From the NCBI RefSeq assembly GCF_053078305.1, contig NZ_CP166879.1: DNA of 64,000 bases, one strand, 5' to 3'. This document shows positions 8,763 through 19,690 of the stretch, one piece after another. The translations under genes were made by a program, and so were the position numbers. Under the pieces are notes generated by a model. The model saw only the letters and a list, made by a program, of their open reading frames with translations. It ran no database searches and had not been told where the DNA came from. Position 1 is the stretch's first letter; every line of letters starts with the position of its first letter.

Positions 8763-8875
8763 GCCACCACCTCTTCGAATTTCAATTGTTCACCCCAGAT
8801 TTCACATGACTCTGAACACGAGCCGGTATCGAATCGCCTGGCCTGCACCATCGCCTGATAGTTAATCTTCATCAT
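8759..8875 (-). CDS. Hypothetical small protein (38 aa)
   Basis: GAGG then ATG at 8875; stop overlaps the next start (ATGA); N-terminus MMKINYQ resembles the N-termini of neighbouring genes. Confidence 0.3.
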   Translation of the reverse strand: MMKINYQAMVQARRFDTGSCSESCEIWGEQLKFEEVVA

Positions 8876-13264: not shown

Positions 13265-13672
13265 ATGGATACAAAAAATTTAACCATTGGCGAACGCATT
13301 AGATATCGCCGAAAAAGCCTCAAATACACCCAAAGGTCTCTTGCTAAAGCCCTGAAAATTTCTCATGTATCGGTTTCACAATGGGAACGGGATGACAGCG
13401 AACCGACAGGGAAGAATCTTTTTGCCCTCAGCAACGTACTGCAGTGCTCGCCAACATGGATTCTATTTGGCGATGAAGACAAGCAGCCATCACCACCTAT
13501 TGAGGAGCCAGTTGCTCTATCCCCCAAAGAACATGAGCTCCTTGAGCTTTTTAATGCATTGCCTGAATCAGAACAGGATGCTCAGCTCACCGAGATGCGC
13601 GCCCGAGTAAAAAATTTCAACAAACTCTTTGAAGAGTTATTAAAAGCCCGTCAACGAACAAACAAAAGATAA
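13265..13672 (+). CDS. dicA: Repressor DicA (XRE-family HTH)
   Basis: 135 aa; near-identical to DicA as I recall it. Confidence 0.85.
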   Translation: MDTKNLTIGERIRYRRKSLKYTQRSLAKALKISHVSVSQWERDDSEPTGKNLFALSNVLQCSPTWILFGDEDKQPSPPIEEPVALSPKEHELLELFNALPESEQDAQLTEMRARVKNFNKLFEELLKARQRTNKR

Positions 13673-13760: not shown

Positions 13761-13838
13761 TTACTTACATCAAGACACCGCACGGTGTTCTCAGCAAACA
13801 GTTCCGCTACCCCGGCGTTAAGGGGAAATGAGGTCAAC

Positions 13839-13991
13839 ATGGATACGCTCAATCTTGGCAACAACGAATCTCTGGTATGCGGCGTGTTTCCCAACCAGGA
13901 CGGCACGTTTACCGCGATGACGTATACCAAAAGTAAAAAGTTTAAAACCGAAGCTGGCGCGCGTCGCTGGTTAGCCAGAAACACTAACTGA
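13839..13991 (+). CDS. YdfA-like small protein
   Basis: 50 aa starting MDTLNLGNNES; first gene of the dicB-type operon. Confidence 0.5.
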   Translation: MDTLNLGNNESLVCGVFPNQDGTFTAMTYTKSKKFKTEAGARRWLARNTN

Positions 13992-14245
13992 TTAGCACCA
14001 GTAAAAACAGGTTGCCACTGGTTAATTTACCCTGAAAAGTCAGGGCATAACACGAAAGCGCACGGAGAAGCTCGTCTCTCTGTACTTTGTCGCTAAATTT
14101 AATTCGACCGTGCGCTTCCGGTTGTGGCAATCCGCGAAATGGCGCGGCGGTAAGTATGGCTGGGGTTTCCTCCATTGCTCCAGAAAATGCACCGGGTTGT
14201 CAGGTTGACCATACGCTTAAGTGACAGCCCCGCCACAATACCCAT

Positions 14246-14299
14246 GTGTAGTCTTTGGTGGCATCAGTTCTACTCCGTGACTGCTCTGCCACCCTTTTT
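14246..14299 (+). ncRNA. dicF: DicF-like small RNA
   Basis: GGTGGCATCAGTTCTACTCCGTGACTGCTCTGCCACCC then T5; matches DicF as I recall it, including the terminal hairpin. Confidence 0.55.
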
Positions 14300-14788
14300 A
14301 AAGTGAATTTTGTGATGCGGTGAATGCGGCTAAGCGCACGCGGAACAGTTAAAACCGTAAAGTGGTCTTTTACGGGGCGTAACGGGCATACTTCTGTATT
14401 CCGGCGTTAATTGTTAACTGGTTAACGTCACCTGGAGGCACCAGGCACTGCATCAACAAAGTTCACTTCGGTGATGAAGGGTAAGAGAAAATGTTGAATG
14501 TAGCTATTGAAAACCAGAACGGGTGGAATTATAGTGCACCTGCACCTCATAAAACGGGTGCCGGGCGTGGAAACCCGATGATGATCAACGCGCATAACCG
14601 CGCTCAGGCGGTTTTTTTTATGCGTCAAGCACAGCCACATTCAAATTATGGTGGGGCGTGCAGGGCAGCTGCAAGGCTGGCCGGCTCCGTTGGTCACCGG
14701 TATTTCCACCCCTGTACGTCTCACCACCTTTATGGTCGTGGAAAACCTCGGTGGTGAGTTATTTAAACTGATCAACGAGGCTGCCATC

Positions 14789-15346
14789 ATGGCTACTACC
14801 CTTACCCTTTCTCACCCTGACGTAACCATCGAAAATGGTCGCGCAGTCACCACGTCTGTTGCAGTTGCAGAGTTCTTCCACAAACTGCATAAAAACGTCA
14901 TTCAAAAAATTGAAGCTCTGGAATGTTCCGACGAATTCACTGAGCTTAATTTTCAGCCCAGCGAATACACCGACACAACCGGTCGCAAACTCCCAATGTA
15001 CCAAATCACCAAAAACGGCTTCGTTTTCCTGGTGATGGGCTTCACCGGCAAAAAAGCCGCTGCATTTAAAGAAGCCTACATCGCTGAGTTCGATCGCATG
15101 GAGAAAGAACTGCGCCAGAATAACGCCCCGTCTCCCGACAAAATGATTCACGGGGACGGACGTACCCTGGTTATCCGTCTCGACGAACACGGCAATATCA
15201 AATTCACTGAAACCGTTCCGGACGGCGCAATGGTCTGCACCCTGGATACCTTCCAGTTTTATCTGGAAAAACAAGGCTGGACTCTTGTAAACCGGAGCGC
15301 AATTAAAAATATGACTGTGGAGCAATTACTAAAAATTCATTGTTGA
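14789..15346 (+). CDS. Rha-family phage regulatory protein
   Basis: ATG at 14789 with GAGG 9 nt upstream; N-terminal region resembles the Rha family. Confidence 0.55.
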   Translation: MATTLTLSHPDVTIENGRAVTTSVAVAEFFHKLHKNVIQKIEALECSDEFTELNFQPSEYTDTTGRKLPMYQITKNGFVFLVMGFTGKKAAAFKEAYIAEFDRMEKELRQNNAPSPDKMIHGDGRTLVIRLDEHGNIKFTETVPDGAMVCTLDTFQFYLEKQGWTLVNRSAIKNMTVEQLLKIHC

Positions 15347-15356
15347 GGACGCGATA

Positions 15357-15545
15357 ATGGAAACGTTATTACCAAACGTTAATACGTCTGAAGGGTGTTT
15401 TGATATTGGTGTTCTGCTCAGTAACCGGGAGTTTACTGAAGATGCCATTAAGATGAGAAAATATGAGCCTTATCTTCTCAATGATAATTCCATACTCTCC
15501 AGAATTGCCCTTCTTAAACTTGGTATTTTCGGGGGGCAGCAGTGA
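15357..15545 (+). CDS. dicB: Cell-division inhibitor DicB
   Basis: 62 aa; N-terminus METLLPNVNTSEGCF matches DicB as I recall it. Confidence 0.7.
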   Translation: METLLPNVNTSEGCFDIGVLLSNREFTEDAIKMRKYEPYLLNDNSILSRIALLKLGIFGGQQ

Positions 15546-15730
15546 CTTCTGCATTTGCACTGGTAATGACTGTTTTTCTTATAACGGGTGAGCCACAGAA
15601 TGTGATTACCGGAATTTATGCCAGTAAAGAATCATGCCTCCGGGCAAGAGACGAGCAAAAAATTTCTGGCGAATGCCTCCCGTTAAAAAAAGTATCGCTG
15701 TACCTGAATAACGAAATACCGGCTGGATAA
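15542..15730 (+). CDS. YdfD-like small membrane protein
   Basis: 62 aa with hydrophobic N-terminus, ATGA overlap with dicB. Confidence 0.45.
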   Translation: MTSAFALVMTVFLITGEPQNVITGIYASKESCLRARDEQKISGECLPLKKVSLYLNNEIPAG

Positions 15731-15822
15731 TCCACCAGCCATATTAACGCCATACCCGTTGATTAAGCATGCCAGCAATGGCAGGGGTTCGTACAACCTT
15801 AAAATAGTTATGAGGTTTATCC

Positions 15823-18261
15823 ATGAGCACTGATAAAGAAGAATTTTCGCTATATTGCGAAGCAAAAAATGACAAGGTCAGAAAACGCCTTGGGATTAAA
15901 GGGGGTTTTTACTGGACTACAGCAAAAAAATTATCTGTTGCCATCTCACGGTGCGTTGTTGCAATGGACGAGGCAGGCTACGACGCTGATGATTTCAAAA
16001 AACCTGTCCGCGTCCATTTCCCCGTTGTGAATGACCTTCCACCGGAAGGCGTGTTTGATACCGAATTCTGCAACCGCTATGAAAAAGGCGGGGAAGATGG
16101 CATCACAATGATATTTATAGCGCCTTCCCCCTCAGTTCAGGACAAACCAGCCAGCACTGACAATACCAACGTCAATGGCGAAGACATGGCTGAGATTGAG
16201 GATAATATGCTCCTGCCAATTTCCGGTCAGGAACTGCCCATTCGCTGGCTTGCGCAACATGGCTGCGAAAAACCGGTAACGCACGTTTCACGGGAAGAAC
16301 TTCAGGCATTACATATCGCACGAGCTGAAGAACTGCCGGCTGTTACTGCCCTGGCTATTTCCCACAACACAAAGCTGCTCGACCCGCTGGAGATTCGCGA
16401 CCTTCACAAACTGGTACGCGACACAGACAAAGTTTTCCCTAATCCCGTTAATTCCAGTCTGGGGTTAATGACTGCTTTTTTCGAAGCATACCTGAACGCT
16501 GACTATACCGATCGAGGTCTGCTGACAAAAGAGTGGATGAAAGGAAATCGTGTTTCTCGCATCACCCGCACGGCTTCCGGTGCAAATGCCGGTGGCGGAA
16601 ATAAAACGGATCGTAATCCTGATTTAGTACACACCCTCGATACTCTGGATGTGGAGATTGCAGCAGCCACACTTCCGATGGATTTTAATATTTATGAAAT
16701 ACCCGTGAGCGTTTATCGTCGCGCAAAAGAAATCGTCCTGAAAAAAGAAAGTCCGTTCAGGGAATGGTCCCCAGCACTTCGCGCAACCCCTGGTATCCTG
16801 GACTATTCCCGCGCAGCTATTTTTGCACTTATCCGGAGCGCCCACCCTGAGTTTTATCACTACCCGGGACGTCTTCAGGGGTATATCAATGCCAACCTGA
16901 CAGAGACCGATCATGAGAATCCCACAACTGAAACTCTCACGGCTGCCCGGCATACACCGGAAAAAGATATCCTGGAAGAAATTAACGGAGGACTGGCTGC
17001 TGAGTGCAAAACAGAAGAAGAAAAAAATGATGAAGAAAACCCGCAACCATCTGGCGCAATGGCAGATGAACAGGCAACGGCTGAAACAATGGCAGCGGAT
17101 ACAGTTGAACATCATCAGGACCCGCAGCCGCTGGATGACAAGTCACAGGTAAAAGTTACTGCTGAAGAAGTAAATAAAATTATGGAGGCAGCAGACATCA
17201 GTCGACCAGATGCCGACAAATTGCTTGCCGCTTCTCGTGGTGAGTTTGTTGAAGGGATTAGCGACCCGAATGATTCGAAATGGGTTAAGGGGATTGAAAC
17301 CTGCGATTCTGTGAACCAGAACCAGCAAGAAACGGAACAGAACGGTCAGAAAGCGGAACAAAACAGCCCAAATGCGTTACAAAACGAGCCAGAAACGAAA
17401 CAACCTGAACCAGTCGTGCAACAGGAAGAGGAAAAAGTTTGTACCGCATGCAATCAGACTGGTGGTGGTAACTGCCCTGATTGTGGCGCAGTGATGGGTG
17501 ACGCAACCTACCAGGAGACATTCAACGAAGAAAGCCAGGATGAAGCCCGGGAAAAAGATCCGGAGGAAATGGAAAGTGCCGGACTCCCGAACAAGGAGTG
17601 CACCGAAGGCGATCAACATGCCAATGGCAATAATGAAACAGGCGAGACAGCAAATCCCTTAATTAAGGTGAACGGTCATCGTGAAATCACATCCACCAGC
17701 AGGTTGTGGCACCATCTGATGATTGACCTTGAAACAATGGGCAAAAATCCTGACGCACCAATAGCCTCAATAGGCGCTGTATTTTTCGATCCACAAACCG
17801 GAGAGCAGGGGCCTGAATTCAGCAAAATAATTGATATGGGTACATGTGGCGGCACTGTAGACATAAGCACCATCGAATGGTGGCTTCAACGCTCTGGCGA
17901 AGCCCGTGCCGCCATTTTAGCTGATCGAATACCGCTTGATGATGCGCTTTTACAATTACGGGAATTTATAGACGAAAACTCCGGTGAGTTTTTTGTTCAG
18001 GTCTGGGGAAATGGAGCCAACTTCGACAACGTGATTTTACGCCGTTCATATGAACGGCAGGAGATCCCCTGCCCGTGGCGTTACACCAATGATCGCGATG
18101 TAAGAACGATGGTCGCTCTGGGGTTGGTGATGGATTTCGATGCCCACAACGTCACCACATTTGAGGGTGAACGCCATAATGCCCTGCACGATGCGCGTTA
18201 CCAGGCAAAATACGTTTCAGCTATCTGGCAAAAACTGTTCCCGAGTCAGGCTGATTTTTAA
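15823..18261 (+). CDS. Large prophage protein: RecE-like N-terminal/central region, zinc ribbon, C-terminal DnaQ-type (DEDDh) 3'-5' exonuclease domain
   Basis: 812 aa; Exo I DLETMG, Exo II GNGANFD, Exo [12 protein letters not shown]; CxxC-x8-CxxC; acidic low-complexity linker. Confidence 0.6.
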
Positions 18262-18319
18262 TGTTCAACCCTGATCGCCGCTAACCGCATATAGTTAGCG
18301 GCGGTTATGAGATATAGCT

Positions 18320-18523
18320 ATGAGCAGCTTATTTTTAACCGAAGATGAATTGCTAATATTAACGGGCTGCAAATATGCAAGCCACCAGCGCAACTGGTTA
18401 ATAAAAAATGGGCTTCCGTTCTATACCAATCGTAGTGGAAAACCGATCGTCAGTCGGGAACTGTTTACCTGTAGAAACACTTTACCACCACGTGAGGCTG
18501 AACCTGATTTCGGTGCGATCTAA
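18320..18523 (+). CDS. xis: Putative excisionase
   Basis: 67-aa ORF immediately upstream of and overlapping int. Confidence 0.5.
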   Translation: MSSLFLTEDELLILTGCKYASHQRNWLIKNGLPFYTNRSGKPIVSRELFTCRNTLPPREAEPDFGAI

Positions 18524-19548
18524 TGGGAAGACGAAGGAAAAATCCCGAACACGAAAAATTACCGCCAAAGGTATACCCCAATAAATATAGTTATGTATGG
18601 AAACCGACATCCAGAGAATCTGTAACCTTAACTGCAATCGAGGATGGTTTAGCCGCATTATGGAAAAAGTACGAAGAAACAATTAACCATCGCGATCGGG
18701 CAATGACATTTGGGCGTTTGTGGGAAAAATTTCTCGCCAGCGCCTATTACAGCGATCTTAGTCCCAGAACGCAAAAAGATTATCTGCAACATCAAAAAAA
18801 GCTGCTGGCCGTATTCGGTAAGGTGCTGGCCGATTCTGTAAAACCAGAGCACATCAGACGATACATGGACAAAAGGGGCGAGCAGAGTAAAACGCAGGCA
18901 AACCATGAAAAAAGCAGCATGTCACGCGTTTACAGTTGGGGGTATGAACGAGGGTATGTAAAGGCTAATCCTTGTGCCGGTGTAAGTAAATTCAAGGCCA
19001 AAAACCGAGAGCGCTATGTGACTGACAAAGAATACCAGGCCGTATTAAGCGTGGCTCCTGTGCCTGTTTTTATCGCAATGGAAATTGCATACCTGTGCGC
19101 AGCAAGGATTTCCGATGTGTTGTCTCTGAAATGGGAACAGATCGGAAACGACGGGATCTTTATCCAGCAAGGTAAAACAGGAAAGAAACAGATAAAAGCC
19201 TGGAGTCCCCGTCTGCAATCAGTTATAGAAAAAGCTAAACAGCTACCCAAGTCAGCCTATGTAATCAGCAATCAGTACGGCAACCGTTACATGTATAAAG
19301 GATTTAATGAAATGTGGGTTGAGGCAAGAAATTTGGCTGGACAAATATCAGGGATCGCGACGGATTTTACATTCCATGACCTTAAAGCCAAGGGGATATC
19401 AGATTACGAAGGTAGTAGCCGGGATAAGCAACTTTTCTCTGGTCACAAGACCGAAGGACAGGTGCTAATCTATGATAGAAAAGTAAAGATCTCACCCACA
19501 CTGGATGTACCATTACCCCAGAATATTCCAACAAAATATTCCAAGTAA
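18523..19548 (+). CDS. int: Tyrosine integrase, lambda Int family
   Basis: 341 aa; lambda-Int-like N-terminus MGRRRK; ends about 50 bp from the 3' end of serU. Confidence 0.85.
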   Translation: MGRRRKNPEHEKLPPKVYPNKYSYVWKPTSRESVTLTAIEDGLAALWKKYEETINHRDRAMTFGRLWEKFLASAYYSDLSPRTQKDYLQHQKKLLAVFGKVLADSVKPEHIRRYMDKRGEQSKTQANHEKSSMSRVYSWGYERGYVKANPCAGVSKFKAKNRERYVTDKEYQAVLSVAPVPVFIAMEIAYLCAARISDVLSLKWEQIGNDGIFIQQGKTGKKQIKAWSPRLQSVIEKAKQLPKSAYVISNQYGNRYMYKGFNEMWVEARNLAGQISGIATDFTFHDLKAKGISDYEGSSRDKQLFSGHKTEGQVLIYDRKVKISPTLDVPLPQNIPTKYSK

Positions 19549-19600: not shown

Positions 19601-19690
19601 TGGTGGAGAGAGGGGGATTTGAACCCCCGGTGGAGTTGCCCCCACTCCGGTTTTCGAGACCGGTCCGTTCAGCCGCTCCGGCATCTCTCC
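19601..19690 (-). tRNA. serU: tRNA-Ser (anticodon CGA)
   Basis: 90-nt sequence GGAGAGATGCCGGAGCGGCTGAACGGACCGGTCTCGAAAACC...CTCTCTCCACCA. Confidence 0.85.

Follow-up and report, generated by a model that had tools for sequence, protein, structure and literature searches.

Introduction

Two kinds of described exonuclease bear on the gene considered here, which occupies positions 15823-18261 (+) of a 64,000-nucleotide stretch of DNA (contig NZ_CP166879.1 of RefSeq assembly GCF_053078305.1; the whole stretch is hereafter called the window). The first is RecE of the Rac prophage of Escherichia coli K-12, encoded by an early-left gene near xis and int, whose C-terminus is a PD-(D/E)XK 5′-3′ exonuclease. 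The second is a group of DEDDh-type 3′-5′ exonucleases that includes Rv2179c of Mycobacterium tuberculosis, a stand-alone bacterial RNase, and DexA of phage T4, an early phage-encoded DNase. The structure of T4 DexA has been solved, and the enzyme is described as participating in the repair of double-strand breaks when introns home; the same study reports that an E. coli homologue, EcD, degrades DNA containing 5-hydroxymethylcytosine (5hmC) and that, when borne on a plasmid, it breaks down T4 DNA and renders E. coli resistant to T4 (Kang et al., 2025; PMC12153337).

An earlier note on this DNA had proposed that the gene joins a RecE-like scaffold to a proofreading-type exonuclease domain. The analysis reported here indicates that it is an intact prophage gene, in which the non-catalytic front of RecE is followed by a predicted 3′-5′ exonuclease of proofreading type. 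The gene is also an ordinary, abundant and already catalogued one, the copy in the window being one more member of its family. As to function, we give an even chance to the reading that the product is an early, repressor-controlled 3′-5′ exonuclease, probably acting on DNA, that is built on a RecE scaffold and is not a RecET-type recombinase.

A RecE-Type Front Joined to a DEDDh Domain

The gene is an ATG-start open reading frame (ORF) encoding 812 amino acids (aa), with an AGG 7-9 nt ahead of the start, and the matches of its product to Pfam, NCBIfam and PHROGs 607, 20376 and 2082 place it among the YdfE-type prophage 'exonucleases'. An identical copy is held in IMG/VR locus L012. Residues 1-376 (15823-16950, +) form a folded RecE-type N-terminal region consisting of a small α/β domain (aa 1-100) and subsequent helical domains, and include a match to Pfam Exonuc_VIII, PF06630 (aa 51-189; 15973-16389, +; E 1.9e-33). 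This region is followed by an acidic, low-complexity middle or linker (aa 377-614; 16951-17664, +), which is common to RecE as judged by BLASTP against the K-12 protein and by the homologue cluster P0242, and then by the DEDDh exonuclease domain of the Rv2179c/DexA type (aa 630-802; 17710-18228, +). These matches are far beyond what chance would give.

By BLASTP against K-12 RecE from the Rac region, residues 50-614 correspond to RecE 42-591 with 56% identity over 565 aa, and nothing aligns past residue 614 or RecE 591. The NCBIfam profile NF007259, an equivalog model of exodeoxyribonuclease VIII, likewise matches residues 1-614 over profile positions 1-602 of 877; its score of 880.5 bits falls under the curated cut-off of 1269, since the final third of the profile finds no counterpart in the protein. 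The resemblance of the N-terminal ~600 residues to RecE, which the earlier note had proposed, is thus borne out by both the alignment and the profile. The zinc ribbon that it had described within this region is also present (CTAC-N7-CPDC, aa 540-554; 17440-17484, +), and is kept in the homologous N-terminal ~590 residues of K-12 RecE, but the pairs C540-C543 and C551-C554 are separated by seven residues (CxxC-x7-CxxC) and not by the eight originally counted. Among related proteins, the ribbon occurs in P0241, P0242 and P0243 and is missing from P0244, P0246 and P0248.

Where RecE carries its 5′-3′ nuclease, the window protein carries an unrelated DEDDh domain of predicted opposite polarity. 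Pfam PF16473 (Rv2179c-like) matches aa 630-802 over the whole of its length (model positions 1-177 of 177; E 3.3e-62), and the three motifs noticed earlier are MIDLETMG (aa 633-640), GNGANFD (729-735) and HNALHDARY (785-793). They supply the expected catalytic residues, namely D635-x-E637 in ExoI, D735 in ExoII and H785-x4-D790 in ExoIII. Across 90 homologues of 37-74% identity, D635, E637, D735 and H785 are invariant and D790 is present in 89. An AlphaFold model of the domain (pLDDT 93.7, pTM 0.88), when submitted to Foldseek, returned T4 DexA with a TM-score of 0.73, followed by RNase T and Orn/REXO2, at a probability of 1.00. In a sequence search of the PDB, the only matches were T4 DexA entries 8KEL and 8KEN (E 1.7e-5), and no RecE chain was among them. 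These observations support the original assignment of the C-terminus as a 3′-5′ proofreading-type exonuclease distinct from that of RecE: the domain has an RNase H-like α/β fold of the Rv2179c/DexA DEDDh type, and not a PD-(D/E)XK fold.

T4 DexA is therefore the best solved match in both sequence and structure. It is nonetheless a stand-alone protein of 227 aa with extra loops, and is only 21-24% identical to the window domain, which sits on a scaffold of 614 aa. Its residue W152 is represented by a threonine in the window protein. The top 50 Foldseek matches of the domain did not include Rv2179c, for which the fully matched Pfam model is named.

The name of this Pfam model is one reason to ask whether the enzyme might instead be a 3′-5′ exoribonuclease, directed at phage or host transcripts or small RNAs during induction, or at the genomes of RNA phages. 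The structural neighbours that follow DexA, RNase T and oligoribonuclease/REXO2, point in the same direction, as does a 2026 preprint showing that RNA phages are blocked by certain DEDDh exonucleases of prophages that also carry auxiliary domains (PMC13344964). The enzymes in that preprint, however, were picked as ISG20 homologues of fewer than 500 aa, and nothing connects them to PF16473; EcD (41% identical) and DexA, which are nearest in sequence among the characterised relatives, are DNases; and the scaffold derives from a DNA exonuclease. We therefore consider an RNA-degrading role quite improbable. Since the nearest characterised relatives are DNases, the substrate is most probably DNA.

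Exchange of Nuclease Modules on a Shared Scaffold

An exhaustive representative homologue search with the DEDDh domain (E <= 0.001) yielded 11,307 clusters, and the best matches listed were mostly stand-alone proteins of ~180-200 aa. The nearest relatives of the window domain are C-terminal fusions of 450-900 aa, whose N-termini are mosaics built from a few modules. One of these clusters, P0242, starts with ~350 aa that agree completely with K-12 RecE (100% identity), and over RecE 1-592 as a whole the identity is 88%; beyond this point it is unrelated to RecE and bears a DEDDh domain instead. The end of this homology places the exchange point at about RecE residue 592, and the nuclease domain of RecE that has been crystallised (606-866) starts just past it. 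The switch from RecE to DEDDh sequence in P0242 therefore indicates that the two nucleases are alternative effectors on one scaffold.

The front of the protein varies as well. A common 823-aa 'exonuclease', found in O157:H7, ST131 and phage mEp460, occupies the same slot, and aa 270-812 of the window protein are 60% identical to its representative P0241. Its first ~270 aa, however, form a different module that is not RecE-like, whereas the window allele has the RecE-type PF06630 module. The K-12 pseudogene ydfE of the Qin prophage (L120, 5079-5999) corresponds to the first 256 aa of this 823-aa allele, with 98.8% identity to P0241, and is cut by IS2.

A further arrangement was observed in Klebsiella. 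At positions 5672-7720 of a K. grimontii locus (L009), two separate ORFs 57 nt apart encode the RecE-type scaffold, of 423 aa, and the DEDDh domain, of 239 aa, in an equivalent setting that comprises DUF1482, a DUF4224 xis, int and an mtfA-like gene. The Klebsiella DEDDh ORF was found on 5 contigs, and the two-ORF layout is seen in the 3 loci shown. This form represents either a natural two-protein version or a shared nonsense mutation.

Prevalence and Conservation of the Gene

The rarity that the earlier note seemed to imply did not survive a census. Of 5426 complete E. coli genomes, 4191 contain DNA encoding the DEDDh domain, at 8870 places altogether and usually more than once (median 2 and up to 8 per genome), whereas DNA of K-12 recT and the recE nuclease occurred in 1818 of the same genomes. 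The DEDDh fusion architecture is thus commoner in E. coli than RecE/RecT. It is also routinely annotated, as 'exonuclease' or '3′-5′ exonuclease' in NCBI RefSeq, and PHROG families for it exist. Two word-indexed homologue searches recovered mostly near-identical, partial E. coli proteins of little diversity, and the public databases hold hundreds of such near-identical 'partial' entries, which differ in length. It would seem from this pattern that short-read assemblies are regularly interrupted by the multi-copy gene, within its conserved C-terminal half, and such breakage of draft assemblies would account for the predominance of partial homologues.

We examined 80 prophage loci from IMG/VR whose DEDDh domains are 79-100% identical to that of the window. 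In 75 of them the ORF is 750 aa or longer, dicB and ydfD lie upstream of the exonuclease in 74, and the distance from the end of the exonuclease gene to the end of the prophage has a median of 1421 bp. A RecE-type N-terminal module (PF06630), as in the window allele, was detected in 36 of the 80. The gene order dicB-ydfD-exonuclease-xis-int recurs in a copy of 97% identity that is likewise integrated at serU, in O157:H7 and in ST131, and is also found in the viable phage mEp460 and in an induced prophage. Median dN/dS values (nonsynonymous to synonymous substitution rates) are 0.11 for the N-terminal, 0.28 for the middle and 0.19 for the C-terminal part, and all three parts of the gene are under purifying selection.

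These data bear on the possibility that the fusion is a decaying, non-functional remnant of mosaic exchange. Split or truncated copies certainly occur, as exemplified by ydfE with its IS2 insertion, by a frameshift in JNEC-KY171 and by the two-ORF form in Klebsiella. However, the large majority of copies are full length, no part of the gene departs from a dN/dS of 0.1-0.3, the catalytic residues are kept in 77-80 of the 80 prophage copies, and the gene is carried by a phage known to be viable. The probability that the family is merely debris is, in our estimation, close to negligible.

A Recombination Slot Without a Detectable Annealase

In Rac, recE is followed by recT, whereas neither recT nor ralR or rcbA lies downstream of the window gene. 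A tblastn search of the 64-kb window in all frames with RecT, the RecE catalytic domain and λ Exo, Bet and Gam gave a best E value of 0.18, and Erf was likewise absent from the window by tblastn. PHROG scans of the early ORFs in the window found no annealase or single-strand annealing protein (SSAP) family, Sak, Sak4 and Gp2.5 being covered through PHROGs only. When the flanks of the 80 related loci were searched by tblastn for RecT, the RecE nuclease domain, λ Exo, Bet and Gam, and P22 Erf and Abc2, none of these proteins was found at any locus (0/80). The lack of a RecT or Bet partner, first remarked on from the ORF list, therefore holds for the window in both kinds of search, and extends to the related loci.

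It is conceivable that the protein nonetheless serves recombination in a RecT-independent manner, together with an unrecognised annealase, or with host RecA, RecFOR or SSB recruited by the scaffold. The gene occupies the same slot as recE and its product has the same scaffold, several early ORFs are without a known function, and T4 DexA has a role in double-strand-break repair during intron homing (PMC12153337). Two considerations make this idea improbable: searches of the window and of the 80 loci detected no SSAP family, and a 3′-5′ polarity would destroy the very 3′ tails that are needed for annealing or for loading of RecA. Because the enzyme would have the wrong polarity to make 3′ tails, and because no annealase accompanies it, the system is unlikely to be a recombinase of the RecET or Red type, and the phage would therefore have to depend on host recombination. 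The host 3′-5′ exonuclease ExoI is encoded by xonA. In a 2026 paper, mutation of xonA is reported to enhance RecET-mediated linear DNA assembly (PMC13048471), which would fit a 3′-5′ activity that opposes such recombination.

Comparison with EcD and the HREX Signature

The study of T4 DexA and EcD assigns three positions to the HREX signature: D90, a tetramer-forming aspartate of DexA that is lost in EcD (Ala78); W152, which is claimed to recognise 5hmC; and D169, which is claimed to recognise the hydroxymethyl group (PMC12153337). From the published primers, of which the forward one matches at 17/17 nt and the reverse one is a near-match, and from the alanine at residue 78, we infer that EcD is a 189-aa stand-alone protein encoded at positions 6401-6970 (-) of locus L103. 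It belongs to the same PF16473/DexA family as the window domain and is likewise prophage-borne, and the two share 41% identity over 184 aa (E 6e-36).

The signature residues distinguish the two proteins. EcD has Ala at the position equivalent to D90 and Trp at that equivalent to W152, whereas the window protein has Asp (D707) and Thr (T755). The aspartate corresponding to D707 is present in all 80 lambdoid copies, and the position of T755 is occupied by Tyr in 46, Thr in 29, Cys in 3 and Asn in 2, with no instance of Trp; both columns thus depart from the proposed signature. Residue D771 aligns with D169 by phmmer and is Asp in 79 of the 80, in a column that is itself unreliable, since most members of the wider family have Gly or a gap there.

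The precedent of EcD raises the possibility that the window protein is a superinfection-exclusion or defence nuclease of the HREX kind, which would degrade modified incoming phage DNA, such as the 5hmC-containing DNA of T-even phages, and spare that of the host. Consistent with this are the digestion of T4 DNA and the protection conferred by plasmid-borne EcD (PMC12153337), the 41% identity of the two domains, and the carriage of the gene by prophages in up to 8-9 copies per genome. The departures at D707 and T755, two of the three signature positions, argue against it. In addition, no defence family in PADLOC-DB v2 matches the exonuclease at E <= 0.01, and the gene lies within a putative repressor-controlled dicB-xis-int transcription unit rather than in the position of a moron expressed by the lysogen. 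EcD itself, whose effect was shown by plasmid expression only, is encoded in a P2-like early operon, where it is flanked by small early ORFs on one side and a Dam-like methylase on the other and precedes a gpA-like nickase. Such a location suggests a lytic function of the phage rather than a defence expressed by the lysogen, and fits a general phage early function. On balance we regard a dedicated defence role for the window protein as unlikely.

Prophage Context and Gene Order

The gene is part of a DicB/Qin-type lambdoid E. coli prophage integrated at serU. Most copies of the exonuclease show only 83-86% identity, and a source other than E. coli was therefore considered, but this was rejected because the cobUST flank of the window is 99.3-99.4% identical to E. 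coli chromosomes. The leftward early region opens with a DicA/cI-like repressor gene (13265-13672, +), which matches PHROG repressor families and takes the same place as dicA in Qin; it is followed by a small ORF (13785-13991, +). The small RNA DicF (14243-14294, +; Rfam RF00039 at 61.1 bits, where the gathering score is 48) marks a dicB-type early operon. Immediately upstream of the exonuclease are dicB, encoding a cell-division inhibitor (15357-15545, +; phrog_1251, and annotated as DicB in the 97%-identical locus L001), and a ydfD-like DUF1482 gene (15542-15730, +; phrog_1092, and so annotated in L001, L003 and L007).

On the other side, as the earlier note had stated, the exonuclease adjoins the integration genes. 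A DUF4224-type excisionase gene, xis, begins 58 nt past the stop codon (18320-18523, +; phrog_1266 and L001 annotation) and is followed by the tyrosine integrase gene int (18523-19548, +; phrog_1 and annotation), which ends the prophage. The attachment site is the tRNA-Ser(CGA) gene serU (19601-19690, -; ARAGORN and Rfam), with mtfA and yeeJ beyond it, and the same junction occurs in L001 and L008. The 58-nt gap between the exonuclease and xis contains no gene, and no terminator-like site precedes xis in this interval. A perfect 8-bp hairpin, CCGCTAAC-n8-GTTAGCGG, was observed at 18277-18300, between the exonuclease stop and the xis start; the hairpin lacks a T-run and is thus not a canonical terminator.

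Two further RNAs identified by Rfam lie between DicF and dicB, namely isrK (14542-14618, +) and a C4 antisense RNA (14644-14731, +), and are followed by a Rha/Ant-like ORF with a listed extent of 14648-15346 (+). The start of this ORF probably lies further downstream, because the C4 match overlaps the listed one. The row of DicF, isrK and C4 between the repressor and the Rha/Ant-like ORF resembles an antirepressor control module of the P1/P7 immI or Gifsy-1 isrK type set within a dicB-type operon.

The divergent genes, on the - strand, encode a Cro-like protein of the YdaS type, a CII-like or YdaT-family protein, an O-like initiation protein and a DnaC-like loader, and further on unassigned ORFs, an HNH-like protein, RusA (3573-3935, -; PHROG scan), Q, a DNA methyltransferase downstream of Q (1272-2330, -) and phage tRNAs for Arg, Arg and Met (982-1231, -). 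Shiga toxin (Stx) phages carry stxAB at the position after Q and the phage tRNAs. The presence of stx at the left end of this prophage was ruled out: the ORF found there (1-~980, -), which runs off the left edge of the window, contains DGACGSGQL and IMNPPF motifs and resembles an N6-adenine methyltransferase and not a toxin. Two small overlapping ORFs on the + strand (5773-6454) were also observed in the otherwise - strand nin-like region. The second of these (6137-6451, +) has a weak PADLOC match to a helix-turn-helix 'control protein' of the RmrA-like kind (E 1.3e-5), and the nin-like region of the related locus L001 carries annotated HicA/HicB; the pair may represent a toxin-antitoxin or controller pair.

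Discussion

The architecture of the protein, its intact active site, the purifying selection on the gene, its conserved position and the lack of an annealase beside it are observed directly, and they frame the reading that we favour. The placement of the gene between dicB/ydfD and xis/int, where nothing resembling a terminator precedes xis, leads us to favour an early lytic role. When the DicA/cI-like repressor is lost, the exonuclease would be transcribed together with dicB, ydfD, xis and int. The scaffold might then deliver the enzyme to the usual target of the RecE N-terminus, presumably DNA ends or intermediates of replication or recombination, where the DEDDh domain would trim nucleotides off free 3′ ends by two-metal chemistry. 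The phage would rely on host recombination, with its own RusA resolving junctions. The purpose of the enzyme may thus be the trimming or destruction of 3′ ends, as for T4 DexA in the breakdown of host DNA and in double-strand-break repair.

Several considerations weigh against this early, DNA-directed exonuclease. The timing of expression is suggested by gene order and by analogy with Qin; a promoter scan, which we did not use as evidence, found only a weak promoter-like site upstream of the exonuclease (15778-15805), and the number of such sites in the region is below chance expectation. Targeting by the RecE N-terminus is an assumption, and fold searches with the N-terminal RecE-type region were uninformative. 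Sequence does not discriminate between a DNA and an RNA substrate, and PF16473 is named for an exoribonuclease. The sole experimental paper on a homologue assigns it a defence role (PMC12153337). Our searches of the literature found no paper that defines a role for this architecture, no study of the RecE-scaffold/DEDDh fusion or of ydfE, and no biochemical or genetic study of any RecE-scaffold fusion.

A broader proposal can be made, although we judge it decidedly unlikely. In the 'recombination slot' of E. coli lambdoid prophages, the protein encoded most often might be a scaffold-delivered 3′-5′ nuclease dedicated to conflict and not a recombinase, in which case the RecE N-terminus could be a general targeting module for nuclease effectors of opposite polarity that are swapped onto it. 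Such an enzyme might destroy the 3′ ends of rival phage or plasmid DNA, it might destroy host defence nucleic acids, or it might redirect processing by host RecBCD and RecA.

Whichever function applies, the gene is present in roughly three of every four complete E. coli genomes, often in multiple copies, and its carriers include O157:H7, ST131 and relatives of Stx phages. Knowledge of its role would show whether these prophages recombine by means of the host only, which bears on their mosaicism and on the spread of virulence genes. It would also show whether the HREX claim made for DexA homologues reaches the most abundant members of the family, and what purpose is served by the long N-terminal region of RecE, which has been kept while the nuclease was exchanged.

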